DNA from: a virus
Lineage: Duplodnaviria > Heunggongvirae > Uroviricota > Caudoviricetes
Strand: one strand, 5' to 3'
Length of the DNA: 37,974 nt
IMG/VR virus record: IMGVR_UViG_2778261505_000008
Coordinates: 1-37,974 of that record
Part shown: positions 4,468 to 35,475 of the stretch, piece after piece
How the letters are laid out: each line of letters opens with the position of its first letter
Numbering within the stretch: the first letter of the stretch is position 1
Made by a program: the position numbers and the translations under genes
The notes under the pieces: model-generated
Seen by the model: the letters and a program-made list of their open reading frames with translations, nothing else
The model's database searches: none
Told to the model about the DNA's origin: nothing

Positions 4468-4764
4468 TCAGTCATTACTGATAGCGCCATAACGTGAGCG
4501 GTAATTACGCAGGCGCGGGTCGATATATTCAGGGAAGTGGGTATATGTGGCTTTGCGGAATGGTCGGATTGATGTCTGGTAAATTCGCTCGTGTTCTTCT
4601 TTCTCTGCAAGCCATATACAGTGGCGAAATTCCTTTTCCTCTTTCGTTTCCTGCGGTAGAGACATTATTCGATCGTAGTTTTTTCTGAATTTATCCAGCA
4701 CCTCCGATACGGAATTGCCGGAACAGCGGCGCGGGTCATCCGCACCATACAGAGGCGCTGGCAT
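4468..4764 (-). CDS. Hypothetical protein (98 aa)
   Basis: ORF track 4468..4764 (-). ATG at 4762-4764 preceded by AGGAGG with a 5-nt spacer. Lies immediately downstream of ssb. Confidence 0.6.
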
Positions 4765-6308: not shown

Positions 6309-6441
6309 TTTTTGGAACTCCTGGCTGATTAAGTACGTCGATGAGTCGTTTCCATCCGTCACGTAATTTACGGGTGATTCGTTCAAGTAAAGATTCGGAA
6401 GGGCAGCCAGCAACAGGCCACCCTGCAATGGCATATTGCAT
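6301..6441 (-). CDS. cIII: CIII (FtsH inhibitor), 46 aa
   Basis: Not in the ORF track. Hand translation of the reverse complement of 6301-6441 gives MQYAIAGWPVAGCPSESLLERITRKLRDGWKRLIDVLNQPGVPKNG, matching remembered lambda CIII. AAGGAG sits 6 nt upstream of the ATG. Confidence 0.7.
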   Translation of the reverse strand: MQYAIAGWPVAGCPSESLLERITRKLRDGWKRLIDVLNQPGVPKNG

Positions 6442-6513
6442 GGTGTGCTCCTTATTTATACATAACGAAAAACGCCTCGAGTGAAGCGTTATTGGTATGC
6501 GGTAACGCCGCGC

Positions 6514-16365: not shown

Positions 16366-16550
16366 ACGCCACAATTCAAACGATACCAGAGCTTCTTATC
16401 CAGACACGAGGCAATCAGACCGAAGTGGCGAGGATGCTTTCCTGCGCAAGAGGAACGGTGCTCAAGTACAACCGAGACAGCAAAGGCGAACGTCACGTAA
16501 TAGTTAACGGCGTCCTGATGGTCAAACAGGGCAAGAGGGGAAGACGATGA
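16362..16550 (+). CDS. ninH: NinH-like protein
   Basis: ORF track 16362..16550 (+). ...TIPELLIQTRGNQTEVARMLSCARGTVLKY... resembles remembered lambda NinH. Confidence 0.7.
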   Translation: MNATIQTIPELLIQTRGNQTEVARMLSCARGTVLKYNRDSKGERHVIVNGVLMVKQGKRGRR

Positions 16551-17065
16551 GCATAAGAGAACTAAACCTCACCAAAGAACAGCACGATTGGCTGAATGGC
16601 TGGCTTGAACTGTGGGGCGCATGGGTTTATTCAGGTCGTCTGGAAAAGCGCATGAGCAGCGTAATAGCGAAGTTCATGGAGAGCGTAGAGCCGGGAAGAG
16701 TTATGACAAGGCCAATGTGTAATGATGATGATGGAATGTTGATTTCTCAGGTCGTCGATTCCGTCATGTGCATTGACAAGAAAGCCTTTGGCATCCTCCT
16801 CAGCTACTACGCTCATGGTTCATCTAAGCGAGCAATTGCATCCTACTATCACGCGACTGCAAAGCCACGCAAGATGTGTGGACGTGGTGGTGAGGGATGG
16901 AGAAAACCTTCACTGGCAACCTGTAGAAATGAAATTGACGACATCCTGAAAGCGTCGTTATTTGTTTTGTACCAACCAATGCAAAATGCTTTCAAAATGC
17001 GTAAACGTGTTGAGAAAGTTAAGCATGTTGCTGTTAAAAGCCTTGACATGCAATTAGCCATTTAG
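16547..17065 (+). CDS. Q: Late antiterminator Q (phage 21/82 type, not lambda type)
   Basis: ORF track 16547..17065 (+). ...LELWGAWVYSG...RPMCNDDDGMLISQVV... matches the Q-antiterminator family signature remembered from E. coli QuuD. Confidence 0.8.
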   Translation: MSIRELNLTKEQHDWLNGWLELWGAWVYSGRLEKRMSSVIAKFMESVEPGRVMTRPMCNDDDGMLISQVVDSVMCIDKKAFGILLSYYAHGSSKRAIASYYHATAKPRKMCGRGGEGWRKPSLATCRNEIDDILKASLFVLYQPMQNAFKMRKRVEKVKHVAVKSLDMQLAI

Positions 17066-17072
17066 CCATAAT
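17043..17072 (+). promoter_or_regulatory. PR'-like late promoter
   Basis: -35 TTGACA (17043-17048), 18-nt spacer, -10 CATAAT (17067-17072), overlapping the Q 3' end as PR'/qut does in lambdoid phages. Confidence 0.5.
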
Positions 17073-17082
17073 TAGAGGGTAA

Positions 17083-17126
17083 GCTGCCGTTAGTGACTCT
17101 TAAGTTGCAACGGTGGCTTTTTTTAT
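17083..17126 (+). terminator. tR'-like terminator
   Basis: Imperfect stem gctgccgtt...aacggtggc followed by ttttttta (17118-17125), about 45 nt downstream of the putative promoter. Confidence 0.4.
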
Positions 17127-17128
17127 TT

Positions 17129-17203
17129 GGGTCAGTCGTATAAAGGTCATTACGGAAGGCTGTTAACCTTCTTATCGTGGTTCGAGTCCACGCTGTCCCG
17201 CCA
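17129..17203 (+). tRNA. tRNA-Asn (anticodon GUU) candidate, 75 nt
   Basis: Hand fold: acceptor gggtcag/ctgtccc (one U-U mismatch), anticodon stem gaagg/ccttc with loop CUGUUAA, T-arm cgtgg-TTCGAGT-ccacg, discriminator G, encoded CCA. Confidence 0.6.
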
Positions 17204-17208
17204 AATAT

Positions 17209-17284
17209 GCTGGTTTAGCTCCAATGGTAGAGCAGTCGCCTTGTAAGCGAATGGGTAGCGGTTCAAGTCCGTTAACCAGCACCA
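17209..17284 (+). tRNA. tRNA-Thr (anticodon UGU) candidate, 76 nt
   Basis: Hand fold: perfect 7-bp acceptor gctggtt/aaccagc, D-arm gctc-caatggta-gagc, anticodon loop CUUGUAA, T-arm agcgg-TTCAAGT-ccgtt, discriminator A, encoded CCA. Confidence 0.7.
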
Positions 17285-17372
17285 TAACTGAGCCGTAGCC
17301 ACTGGCTATCATGAATTCATCGGTGATAGTTACGCTGCGGCCTTCTACACATGACCTTCGTGAAAGCGGGTG

Positions 17373-17406
17373 GCAAGAGGTTGCGCTAACAACCTCCTGC
17401 CGTTTT
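17373..17406 (+). terminator. Hairpin downstream of the tRNA pair
   Basis: gcaagaggttg-cgctaa-caacctcctgc: 11-bp stem with one mismatch, then cgtttt. Weak T-run. Confidence 0.3.
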
Positions 17407-17506
17407 GCCCGTGCATATCGGTCACGAACAAATCTGATTACTAAACACAGTAGCCTGGATTTGTTCTATCAGTAATCGACCTTATTCCTAATTAAATAGA
17501 GCAAAT

Positions 17507-17528: not shown

Positions 17529-17732
17529 ATGTACCGTATGGACAAAATCAGAGAATGGTTCAGTTACAGCTTCGGAGGACTGACTGCGATGGGTGGCATT
17601 CTCTCCCTGAATGACTGGGCTGTCATCATTGGTATTCTTTGTACTGTCGGCACATTTGGCATCAACTGGTACTACAAGCGCAAAGAGCGCGAGGACAGAT
17701 TGAATGGCAATGTCACCGGCACTACGAAATAG
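17529..17732 (+). CDS. Holin (67 aa) with dual-start motif
   Basis: ORF track 17529..17732 (+). MYRMDK... gives Met1 and Met4 with a basic residue between. Two hydrophobic segments, charged C-tail. Immediately precedes the endolysin. Confidence 0.8.
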
Positions 17733-35377: not shown

Positions 35378-35475
35378 TTCGCTTGGATGCGGCAAAGAAA
35401 TCAAAACAGTGAAGCCCCAACTGCGGGAACAGTCAGGGCTTCGGTATCGTAAAACCACGCATAGGAATTAACGAC

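Follow-up and report, generated by a model that had tools for sequence, protein, structure and literature searches.

A tRNA-Asn/tRNA-Thr pair in the late leader of a P22-like Escherichia coli phage as a probable substitute for nuclease-cleaved host tRNAs

Results

Two tRNA genes precede the late operon

The window, i.e., the whole 37,974-bp stretch of DNA analysed here, is a mosaic P22-like E. coli phage with tRNA genes in the 5' leader of its Q-dependent late operon (Table 1). ARAGORN finds exactly two such genes in the entire window, one with anticodon GUU and one with anticodon UGU, and Rfam agrees. The first-pass annotation had arrived at the same two genes and anticodons by folding cloverleaves by hand and had named ARAGORN as a check. 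Scores against Rfam family RF00005 amount to 55.3 bits (E 2e-9) for tRNA-Asn and 61.5 bits (E 4e-11) for tRNA-Thr, both above the gathering score of 29. These covariance-model scores decide the matter, the cloverleaf folding energy being uninformative (z = -1.7 for both tRNAs). The terminal CCA is encoded by either gene, as first noted by eye and now seen in the cmscan alignment and the ARAGORN drawing.

Each gene is 100% identical to its copies in phage 21 and Sf6. The tentative first-pass suggestion that Sf6-like phages carry such a pair at this locus proved correct, as tRNA-Asn and tRNA-Thr stand in this place in the annotation of Sf6. The authors of the SfI genome obtained the same anticodons with tRNAscan-SE (PMC3636060), and the two tRNA genes of phage 21 have been annotated with ARAGORN and tRNAscan-SE (PMC9119081). 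According to PGAP annotation, 369 of 5,426 complete E. coli genomes (~7%) contain the pair. These are genuine phage tRNA genes that have already been catalogued, and as gene calls they offer nothing new.

Table 1 Features of the Q-tRNA-holin region (positions in the window)
Feature	Position	Strand	Details
Late-gene antiterminator Q	16547..17065	+	172 aa, Sf6 gp59 / phage-21-Q-like; phrog_943 'anti-termination protein Q-like', E = 4.4e-93
Late promoter PR'	17043..17072	+	-35 TTGACA 17043-17048, -10 CATAAT 17067-17072; 11/12 matches, promoter scan
tR' terminator, late leader	17081..17128	+	hairpin 17081-17119, U-run 17120-17128; -20.2 kcal/mol, z = -5.15
tRNA-Asn(GUU)	17129..17203	+	75 nt including CCA; ARAGORN; Rfam RF00005
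Inter-tRNA spacer	17204..17208	+	5 nt, AAUAU; pi 0.10, highest polymorphism in the region
tRNA-Thr(UGU)	17209..17284	+	76 nt including CCA; ARAGORN; Rfam RF00005
Long imperfect hairpin	17292..17341	+	travels with the tRNA module; without U-run; common to phage 21 to ~17346
Second hairpin	17366..17412	+	upstream of the lysis genes; fold; weak covariation
Holin, first late protein gene	17529..17732	+	67 aa; phage-21-type pinholin position; ORF

The open reading frame preceding the tRNA genes is also annotated as Q among its BLAST matches. The late promoter, described in the Sf6 record as 'nearly identical to phage 21 late promoter', overlaps the 3' end of this gene. Its hexamers are spaced by 18 nucleotides and enclose the direct repeats ATTAGCCA (17053-17060) and TTTAGCCA (17061-17068). 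A Q-binding element is annotated at the equivalent place in phage 21, and by analogy the repeats are a putative element of this kind. Homology with phage 21, whose identity with the window begins at 17080, puts the transcription start at ~17079. A terminator and a qut region are annotated here in the Sf6 and phage 21 records, and tRNA-Asn begins right after the tR' U-run of this phage-21-type late leader, in line with the placement of the pair next to PR'/tR' in the first-pass annotation. A comparative paper on pR' makes no mention of tRNAs (PMC6266700).

On the 3' side, the tRNA-bearing leader is limited by the holin gene, which directly follows the tRNAs in the phage 21 and Sf6 records. The intervening RNA (17285-17420) folds with -53.4 kcal/mol (z = -4.3), and the match to phage 21 ends at query position 297. 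In the first hairpin, one-sided changes are mostly pairing-neutral and both-sided changes are absent. The second hairpin is also present in P22, which lacks tRNAs (75% identity to P22 38075-38189). RNAalifold found practically no covariation that would mark the two downstream hairpins as conserved RNA (term +0.18, one both-sided change). Some relatives carry a tRNA-Gly(UCC) gene at +159; a decayed third tRNA at 17285-17420 was considered and rejected, because the region forms a plain hairpin unlike the Gly gene.

The order of the genes suggests how the tRNAs would be expressed. RNA polymerase would start at PR' and, in the absence of Q, stop at tR'. With Q, the terminator would be read through and both tRNAs would be transcribed before the genes for lysis and the virion, after which RNase P and 3' trimming would free the mature tRNAs. 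CCA addition would not be needed, because CCA is encoded. In the BTP1 transcriptome, two central tRNA genes were left out of the list of genes above 100 TPM, and the lytic operon starts directly after them (PMC7067206).

The tRNA block is a mosaic unit among lambdoid phages

The phage 21/Sf6 module has the same gene order as the window (promoter-qut-terminator-tRNA-Asn-tRNA-Thr-holin) and the same downstream hairpin, and modules of that kind also occur in SfI, BTP1, SPN9CC, HK446, mEp506 and Kapi1. A literature search on the BTP1 tRNA-Asn returned nothing relevant. The spacer, AACAU in phage 21 and Sf6 as opposed to AAUAU in the window, is the sole difference within the pair region. While the Q gene, promoter and leader of Sf6 match those of the window, the Q gene and promoter of phage 21 do not, homology beginning only at the transcription start (17080). 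For HK446, mEp506 and Kapi1, it begins at ~17119. From these differing start points it follows that the tRNA block is a mosaic unit that has been joined to various Q/PR' types.

Related arrays occupy the same slot elsewhere. Phage L has tRNA-Asn and a 'Leu(UAA)' between Q and the lysis genes, and Klebsiella phage Mulock has an Asn-Phe-Thr-Arg array. The Asn genes of phage L/ST64T and of Mulock are homologous to that of the window, but the tRNA content of the arrays differs, and the second tRNA of ST64T is remodelled and escapes ARAGORN. The Stx phage 933W has ileZ-argN-argO between Q and stx, tRNAs that read rare Ile and Arg codons. The arrays of phage L, Mulock and 933W are presumably likewise dependent on Q.

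Asn(GUU) and Thr(UGU) also co-occur in P1, N4, T5 and, as part of the larger array, in Mulock. In the temperate coliphage P1 they keep this order and are separated by 2 nt, but the sequences differ from those of the window (about 80% identity for Thr, no blastn alignment for Asn), and the P1 genes lie in the repressor-controlled, early ban operon, whereas the window pair lies in the late leader.

Structure and constraint of the two tRNAs

Inspection of the cmscan alignment and the ARAGORN drawing corroborated the first-pass description of tRNA-Asn: the acceptor stem is Watson-Crick paired apart from a U4·U69 mismatch, and the D stem is reduced to 3 bp because of a U13·U22 mismatch. The tRNA thus fails to form the 7-bp acceptor and 4-bp D stems, both of which are fully paired in tRNA-Thr, for which a perfect acceptor stem had correctly been reported. 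The Asn anticodon arm (GAAGG-CUGUUAA-CCUUC) has five Watson-Crick pairs plus a possible G26·U44 in the ARAGORN drawing, the variable loop has 4 nt and the discriminator is G73. All conserved tertiary nucleotides are in place (U8, A14, G18-G19, T-loop UUCRA). E. coli AsnRS relies on G34, U35, U36 and G73 as identity elements, and all of these can be read intact from the gene.

The first-pass annotation had missed two departures in tRNA-Thr: position 14 is C where A14 is usual, and a G27·A43 mismatch shortens the anticodon stem to 4 bp (arm GUCGC-CUUGUAA-GCGAA). Of the tertiary nucleotides, U8, G18-G19 and UUCAA are present, while position 14 is C, or U in six loci. The identity elements of E. 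coli ThrRS, G1-C72, C2-G71, G35 and U36, are likewise all found in the sequence.

Single stem mismatches occur in real tRNAs, and those of tRNA-Asn recur from copy to copy. The first-pass annotation had suggested that U4·U69 could mark either a degenerating tRNA or a phage-specific identity. Degeneration is not supported. Among 121 copies from phages of E. coli, Salmonella and Shigella, 113 have the U·U pair. It is retained in Mulock, where the pairs 6:67, 7:66 and 28:42 have each been altered on both sides. The complete Asn sequence of the window is shared by 92 of 123 IMG/VR loci in addition to phage 21 and Sf6, and some phages (L014, L087, ST64T) have tRNA-Asn without tRNA-Thr. Position 69 is the stem position that changes most often, from U to C in five copies and from U to G in one. 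Judged by this comparison, U4·U69 appears to be an ancient, stable and tolerated trait and no mark of decay.

Nucleotide diversity points in the same direction. In the IMG/VR sample, Asn has a pi of 0.0065 and Thr one of 0.0117, ~3-6x below the 0.039-0.042 of the adjacent non-coding DNA. Note that the IMG/VR loci were gathered with an exact pattern over Asn positions 26-43, a sampling choice that by itself makes the Asn anticodon arm invariant and explains some of the low Asn diversity; when these 18 sampling-fixed positions are dropped, Asn is still ~5x less diverse than its flanks. Stem substitutions among homologues maintain pairing not only in the Mulock Asn but also at Thr 5:68 and 49:65, where G5-C68 is replaced by U5-A68 in five loci and A49-U65 by G49-C65 in one. 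Several other Thr stem changes yield G·U, and among 106 copies a pair is broken only in two singletons.

Codon usage of the late genes

The codon comparison proposed in the first-pass annotation bore out an enrichment in late genes for ACA but not for the Asn codons. ACA makes up 15.5 per 1000 codons in the late genes of the window (81 codons), compared with 2.2 in highly expressed and 10.2 in 25 ordinary K-12 genes, ratios that are approximate as the K-12 samples are small (4,113 and 7,318 codons); yeeJ, which distorted the reference (ACA 26.9 per 1000), is left out of the figures used. For SfI, 17.3 has been reported against 7.1 in its host (PMC3636060), and thrU is the sole UGU tRNA gene in MG1655 (PMC12445682). 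AAC and AAT together account for 44.8 per 1000 codons in the late genes, 47.3 in the early genes and 37.5 in the K-12 sample without yeeJ, and K-12 has four asn tRNA genes (asnT, asnW, asnU, asnV) within one 36-kb stretch. In the coat gene, 15 of 18 Asn codons are AAC. The codon most enriched over the host is AGA, and the window has no tRNA-Arg(UCU). The late genes of P22 contain 12.9 ACA per 1000 codons without any tRNA genes. From this near-equal use of ACA we conclude that neither nuclease evasion nor a codon benefit is obligatory.

Sites recognized by Toprim tRNA nucleases are altered

The Toprim nuclease P2 Old severs the anticodon arm from host tRNA-ThrU; Asn(GUU) and Lys(UUU) of the host are slower substrates than Thr(UGU) (Govande et al. 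2025, PMC12445682). The tRNA-Thr(UGU) of phage 21, termed tRNA-Thr21 in that study, has the same sequence as the window Thr. It guards against P2-OLD, rescues cells and is partially resistant in vitro, which the authors ascribe to a shorter anticodon stem together with changes such as C28U/G42A (PMC12445682). In the tRNA-ThrU background, motif changes alone gave no resistance and shortening of the stem was needed as well; the UGU anticodon is required for rescue, as shown with tRNA-Thr6 (PMC12445682). The experiments relied on expression from plasmids and on in vitro transcripts; the rescue by phage tRNA-Thr, seen with plasmid expression, was partial, with colonies still small (PMC12445682).

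The anticodons of the window pair match those of host tRNAs cleaved by Old, UGU being that of the primary target ThrU and GUU that of the slower substrate Asn. Within the paired CNG motif (28-30/40-42), host thrU has CUG/CAG and the window Thr UCG/CGA, while host asnT has CGG/CCG and the window Asn AAG/CUU. With U28, A42 and G27·A43, the window Thr combines alterations on both CNG strands with a shortened stem; the Asn stem is not shortened. From the loss of the cleavage motifs we infer that the window Asn may be a second nuclease-resistant substitute.

A second nuclease of interest is AriB of the PARIS system, which targets host Lys(UUU), Thr(UGU) and Asn(GUU) and nicks them between positions 40 and 41, with U39, A41 and U16 as cleavage determinants (Belukhina et al. 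2025, PMC12409363). Lambda is restricted by PARIS (PMC9122126). The Lys(UUU), Thr(UGU) and Asn(GUU) tRNAs of T5 neutralise AriB (Burman et al. 2024, PMC11464382; PMC12409363); the T5 variants of all three targeted tRNAs rescue, and T5 tRNA-Lys is required for bypass of B185 PARIS (PMC12409363). At the determinant sites, host thrU has U39/A41/U16 and asnT U39/C41/U16, as opposed to G39/G41/A16 in the window Thr and C39/U41/A16 in the window Asn. Positions 36-41 as a whole read UAAUCA in thrU and UAAGCG in the window Thr, UAAUCC in asnT and UAACCU in the window Asn. The T5 tRNAs (Thr UAAGCA, Asn UAAGUU) resemble the window pair in having a nucleotide other than U at 39 and no U16 in the D loop. 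T5, however, is virulent and has about two dozen tRNA genes, whereas the window phage is temperate and has two in the late leader. The window shares two of the three T5 isoacceptors and lacks the one for the primary AriB target: ARAGORN finds no tRNA-Lys(UUU) in the whole 37,974 bp. The pair alone would therefore be unable to defeat B185 PARIS, and a full PARIS bypass was rejected as an explanation. In the literature searched, no paper linked AriB to lambdoid tRNAs in a relevant way.

Several observations call for caution. The window tRNAs are 62% and 71% identical to their host counterparts, with differences throughout, so that changes at nuclease sites do not in themselves constitute evidence of selection for escape. 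P1 provides a counter-example: its Thr has G39 like that of the window but keeps CUG/CAG, and its Asn keeps a host-like UAAUCA. P2 Old is activated upon inhibition of RecBCD, and the window encodes the anti-RecBCD protein Abc2, a point in favour of defence evasion. Timing is a difficulty, as the late, Q-dependent tRNAs come after the early RecBCD inhibition that triggers Old.

Discussion

Taken together, the pair is probably best explained as functional tRNAs that replace host tRNAs cut by nucleases, with ACA supply as a secondary role and U4·U69 as a tolerated feature, a reading to which we assign a probability of roughly 70%. The main benefit would be that the phage tRNAs stand in for host tRNAs destroyed by OLD-family Toprim nucleases. 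Extra decoding of ACA, which is common in the late genes and read in E. coli only by the thrU product, is a plausible secondary contribution of tRNA-Thr.

It could be argued that the pair serves codon supplementation alone, chiefly of ACA, with host nucleases uninvolved. The ACA excess of the window and of SfI, the dependence of MG1655 on thrU alone for a UGU anticodon and the preference for AAC in the coat gene, which echoes an argument made for phage L, all favour such a role. We nevertheless regard it as unlikely to be the whole explanation. Asn codons are not enriched, and the host has four asn genes; the SfI authors themselves called the significance of this gene "not clear" (PMC3636060). 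Codon supply alone does not account for the missing tRNA-Arg(UCU) given that AGA is the most enriched codon, or for P22, which reaches a similar late ACA frequency without tRNAs. An anti-nuclease phenotype has also been demonstrated for the identical Thr sequence.

Two further explanations are both very improbable. If tRNA-Asn were decaying or non-functional and merely carried along by linkage to a useful tRNA-Thr, its two non-Watson-Crick stem pairs, its lower Rfam score and the variability of position 69, suggestive of little constraint on the 4:69 pair, would find a ready explanation, and our literature search found no experiment on this gene. A decaying gene would, however, be hard to reconcile with one sequence prevailing in three quarters of the IMG/VR loci (92/123) as well as in phage 21 and Sf6, with the ~5-fold lower diversity that persists after correction for sampling, with intact AsnRS identity elements or with the phages that hold Asn without Thr. 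The Mulock gene, in which three compensatory changes accompany a retained U4·U69, likewise behaves like a functional, structure-constrained tRNA. As for the cloverleaves acting mainly as processing punctuation, at which RNase P would cut off the leader and terminator and define the 5' terminus of the late mRNA, with decoding incidental, the start of tRNA-Asn right at the end of the tR' U-run would suit such a role, and the strong, module-linked hairpin after tRNA-Thr could be a protective 5' structure once the transcript is processed. Yet late-operon expression in P22 and further lambdoid phages proceeds without a tRNA in this place, and conserved anticodons, identity elements and CCA would be needless in a pure processing signal. 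The dependence of the tRNA-Thr6 rescue on its UGU anticodon (PMC12445682) also speaks against it.

Replacement of nuclease-cut tRNAs can be extended to the pair as a unit. On sequence grounds, tRNA-Asn and tRNA-Thr may together constitute a minimal cassette against OLD-family Toprim tRNA nucleases (P2 Old, PARIS-like AriB variants) in which Asn is no passenger, a proposal that we advance tentatively and rate somewhat below even odds. If the two did form such a cassette, it is conceivable, though again not quite an even bet, that the site in the late leader keeps the synthesis of virion and lysis proteins going once the nucleases have cleaved Thr(UGU) and Asn(GUU) of the host. With similar reserve, the same selection might lie behind the repeated co-occurrence of Asn(GUU) and Thr(UGU) across unrelated coliphages, namely those with the lambdoid module, P1, N4 and T5.

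The sequences as such were known before, from the annotation of phage 21, of Sf6 and of E. coli prophages numbering in the hundreds. It is the context that is different now: the pair was left unexplained by authors for two decades, and the literature now provides a function for tRNA-Thr. Should the pair be a counter-defence cassette, the module, present in ~7% of the complete genomes of E. coli, would be a sign of lambdoid phages being in conflict with P2/P4-type elements and would predict which temperate phages are able to spread in P2-lysogenic or PARIS-positive populations. U4·U69 and A16 of tRNA-Asn as well as C14 and A16 of tRNA-Thr could also aid escape, because AriB reportedly reads determinants outside the anticodon arm.

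Gene calls and setting of the tRNA pair

ARAGORN called exactly two tRNA genes in the 37,974-nt window, at the positions and with the anticodons GUU and UGU that the first-pass annotation had read by eye, and both score well above the gathering score of the Rfam tRNA model (29). The other details given in that annotation are borne out by the cmscan alignment and by the structures that ARAGORN draws, i.e., a U4·U69 mismatch in the acceptor stem of tRNA-Asn, a D stem of 3 bp owing to U13·U22, a perfect acceptor stem in tRNA-Thr and an encoded CCA in both genes. However, tRNA-Thr is not the clean tRNA it was taken for: C14 replaces the near-universal A14 (U14 in six IMG/VR loci) and a G27·A43 mismatch leaves an anticodon stem of 4 bp, both of which had been overlooked. 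The D loop reads A15-A16-U17 versus G15-U16-A17 in host thrU. In E. coli, AsnRS recognizes G34, U35, U36 and G73, while ThrRS recognizes G1-C72, C2-G71, G35 and U36, and all these bases are present in the respective window tRNA. Folding energy did not set either tRNA apart from shuffled sequence (z about -1.7) and is uninformative alone, so that the evidence for the tRNAs comes from the covariance model and from their relatives. The tRNA genes and leader hairpins are also overlapped by mechanically derived ORFs (46-54 aa; 17150-17302 (-), 17172-17312 (-) and 17311-17475 (+)), which almost certainly do not represent genes but could lead automatic annotation astray.

Features of the window that bear on the tRNA pair
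Feature	Position	Strand	Evidence and remarks
Abc2 anti-RecBCD homologue	4468-4764	-	phrog_656, E = 2.7e-56; adjoins genes for an Erf-like annealing protein and SSB
Lambda cIII thermoregulator	6396-6454	-	Rfam full-length match, 88.5 bits
Q antiterminator gene	16547-17065		phrog_943, E = 4e-93
Near-consensus promoter	17043-17072		promoter scan
Terminator hairpin and U-run	17081-17128		fold z = -5.2
tRNA-Asn(GTT)	17129-17203	+	ARAGORN; Rfam tRNA model 55.3 bits, E = 2e-9
tRNA-Thr(TGT)	17209-17284	+	ARAGORN; Rfam tRNA model 61.5 bits, E = 4e-11
Long hairpin downstream of Thr	17292-17341		moves with the tRNA module; common to phage 21
Second hairpin	17366-17412		75% identity to P22 38075-38189, ahead of gene 13; GUUUUG follows the hairpin
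Holin gene	starts 17529
P22 sar antisense RNA	35408-35474	-	Rfam full-length match, 76.6 bits

The window represents an E. coli prophage of mosaic make-up that is P22-like (Lederbergvirus-type). Overall, it is matched best by P22-like and lambdoid phages of E. coli, Shigella and Salmonella, none of which spans more than 54% of its first 24 kb, and the matches to the cIII thermoregulator and sar RNA point to mixed lambda/P22 ancestry. Homologues of the promoter and terminator elements are labelled PR', qut/Q-binding region and tR' in the Sf6 and phage 21 records, and tRNA-Asn begins at the first base past the tR' U-run. With tR' upstream and the holin gene downstream, the tRNAs lie in the late-operon leader, past a terminator overridden by Q, and this order of elements would make expression of the pair Q-dependent. 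The Q stop codon (17063-17065) sits within PR'. Between the -35 and -10 elements, the promoter carries direct repeats ATTAGCCA/TTTAGCCA (17053-17068) at the same site as the phage 21 Q-binding element ATTGAGCA/AATGAGCA, which suggests that the window encodes a Q of related type with another DNA specificity. The two strong hairpins in the stretch from tRNA-Thr to the holin gene (z = -4.3 for the region) each give a weak covariation signal. In the transcriptome of the BTP1 lysogen, the two central tRNA genes were left off the list of highly expressed genes, and the start of the lytic operon was placed directly 3' of them (PMC7067206). For phage L, excision of the tRNAs from the late mRNA was stated as not known (PMC8022706).

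A known pair in a recombining slot

Neither the pair nor its exact sequence is new. Megablast matched 17050-17350 to 92 phage records, and in many of these, including Sf6, phage 21, SfI, BTP1, SPN9CC, mEp506 and Kapi1, tRNA-Asn and tRNA-Thr are annotated beneath the match. Sf6-like phages do carry such a pair, as the first-pass annotation had suggested: both genes of Sf6 and phage 21 equal those of the window base for base, the 5-nt spacer being the sole difference. Among complete E. coli genomes, 369 out of 5,426 have the pair, annotated by PGAP. For SfI, tRNAscan-SE gave the anticodons GUU and UGU, a bias for ACA was found and the significance of the Asn gene was called "not clear" (PMC3636060). 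The phage 21 pair has been described in a genome announcement (PMC9119081). Homology begins at the transcription start (17080) in comparison with phage 21 but at about 17119 with HK446, mEp506 and Kapi1, which shows that recombination exchanges the tRNA block separately from the Q/promoter type.

The slot itself is recombinationally active, and host tRNA genes take part. Asn-Thr'-Gly(UCC) arrays occur about +80 to +234 from the tRNA-Asn start in the IMG/VR loci L106, L011, L032, L077 and L078. In L106, Thr' joins 26 nt of the phage 5' end to 50 nt of 3' sequence that do not differ from E. coli thrU, while its Gly matches E. coli glyT at 74 of 75 positions. Thr' and Gly have diverged slightly further in L011 and L032 (71/75 for the L011-type Gly), and ARAGORN no longer calls Thr' of L011-type copies. 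These arrays look as if the phage module had recombined with the thrU-tyrU-glyT operon of the host and tyrU had been lost. In L038 and L041, the GGTTCGA T loop common to both genes links the 5' two-thirds of tRNA-Asn with the 3' end of Gly(UCC), the tRNAs in between are deleted and the chimera is not called by ARAGORN. The second tRNA of ST64T (NC_004348; locus L130, 981-1052), likewise not called, keeps Thr-type acceptor and T arms around a remodelled D/anticodon region that is 4 nt shorter; its phage L equivalent was reported as Leu(UAA) (PMC8022706).

The Asn and Thr isoacceptors also co-occur in the unrelated coliphages P1, N4 and T5 and in Klebsiella phage Mulock. P1 (AF234172, 69348-69501) has them adjacent in the order of the window, 2 nt apart, but in the C1-controlled ban operon, while the arrays are Asn-Ser-Thr plus Pro in N4 and Asn-Phe-Thr-Arg(UCU) in Mulock. 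G39 is shared by all the phage Thr(UGU) genes inspected, as opposed to U39 in host thrU.

No support for a degenerating tRNA-Asn

An exact pattern of the Asn anticodon arm gathered 120 IMG/VR loci, and inclusion of the records for phage 21 and Sf6 brought the set to 123. The pattern fixes Asn positions 26-43, which the diversity figures allow for; the Thr sequence played no part in collecting. The Asn copy is identical to that of the window in 92/123 loci, and pair 4:69 is U·U in 113 of 121 copies (U·C 5, G·U 2, U·G 1). Nucleotide diversity, calculated over 46 haplotypes whose flanks are homologous, is 0.0065 for Asn (about 0.0086 over the 57 positions outside the fixed pattern) and 0.0117 for Thr, compared with 0.10 for the spacer and 0.039-0.042 for the non-coding DNA that directly follows the genes. 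Stem substitutions in Thr keep pairing (G5-C68 to U5-A68 in five loci, A49-U65 to G49-C65 in one, G·U in several cases), and only two singletons break a pair. The Asn homologue of Mulock is changed on both sides at 6:67, 7:66 and 28:42, while U4·U69 and the entire D arm are unchanged. The suggestion that the mismatch marks decay finds no support in this near-uniform U·U, the low diversity and the two-sided changes in Mulock. By these comparisons, U4·U69 is old and tolerated, and the gene behaves like a structure-constrained, functional tRNA. No stem site of tRNA-Asn varies more than position 69, and the mismatched pair may therefore be under little constraint.

Proposed roles: resistance to tRNA-cleaving defence nucleases and codon supply

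The Thr half of the pair has a published mechanism. Host tRNA-ThrU(UGU) loses its anticodon arm to P2 Old, the effector of P2-lambda interference, which makes cuts after C28 and C40 in a paired CNG motif; Old acts more slowly on host Asn(GUU) and Lys(UUU) (Govande et al., 2025, PMC12445682). Phage tRNA-Thr(UGU) genes rescued cells from Old, and that of phage 21, tRNA-Thr21, "also protected against P2-OLD", being partially resistant in vitro because of its shorter anticodon stem and changes such as C28U/G42A (PMC12445682). The window gene has the same sequence, with U28, A42 and G27·A43 all present. PARIS AriB cleaves host Lys(UUU) and Thr(UGU), with host Asn(GUU) as a secondary target, at the bond that joins positions 40 and 41, and U39, A41 and D-loop U16 are determinants of cleavage (Belukhina et al., 2025, PMC12409363). 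T5 variants of the Lys, Thr and Asn tRNAs together neutralise PARIS (PMC12409363), which restricts lambda (PMC9122126). We compared the window tRNAs with fetched K-12 and T5 genes. Position 16 is A16 in both window tRNAs versus U16 in the host tRNAs.

Nuclease target regions of host and phage tRNAs
tRNA	Positions 36-41	Motif 28-30 / 40-42
E. coli thrU	UAAUCA	CUG / CAG
Window Thr	UAAGCG	UCG / CGA
T5 Thr	UAAGCA	UUG / CAU
E. coli asnT	UAAUCC	CGG / CCG
Window Asn	UAACCU	AAG / CUU
T5 Asn	UAAGUU	CAU / UUG

An anti-Old role of tRNA-Thr is established for the identical sequence and is likely to be relevant in the native context, while tRNA-Asn, judged from its altered sites, might be a second nuclease-resistant substitute in the same role. 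The joint carriage of Asn(GUU) and Thr(UGU) by P1, N4, T5 and Mulock, G39 in the phage Thr genes, the restriction of lambda by PARIS and the Abc2 gene of the window fit a defence role. Several points limit this reading. Rescue from Old was partial and achieved from plasmids rather than from the native late leader, and on the ThrU backbone a changed motif did not suffice without a shortened stem (PMC12445682). The anticodon stem of window Asn is not shortened, P1 Asn retains a host-like site, and late expression of the pair comes after the early trigger of Old. Furthermore, window and host tRNAs are only 62% and 71% identical with differences spread everywhere, so that differences at nuclease sites are partly expected by chance. 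Codon supply is a plausible function for Thr, although not an obligatory one, and a weak explanation for Asn. ACA reaches 15.5 per 1000 codons in the window's late genes (81 codons) compared with 2.2 in highly expressed K-12 genes, 10.2 in 25 ordinary K-12 genes (yeeJ left out) and 7.1 in S. flexneri (PMC3636060), and thrU is the sole UGU tRNA gene of MG1655. Yet P22 late genes use ACA almost as often (12.9 per 1000) without any tRNA gene, and the codon most enriched over the host, AGA, has no matching tRNA in the window. Asn codons are not enriched, and several asn tRNA genes exist in the host, four of them within a single 36-kb stretch of K-12.

Inhibition of RecBCD is reported to trigger P2 Old, and the window's own Abc2 belongs to the function class whose action activates Old.
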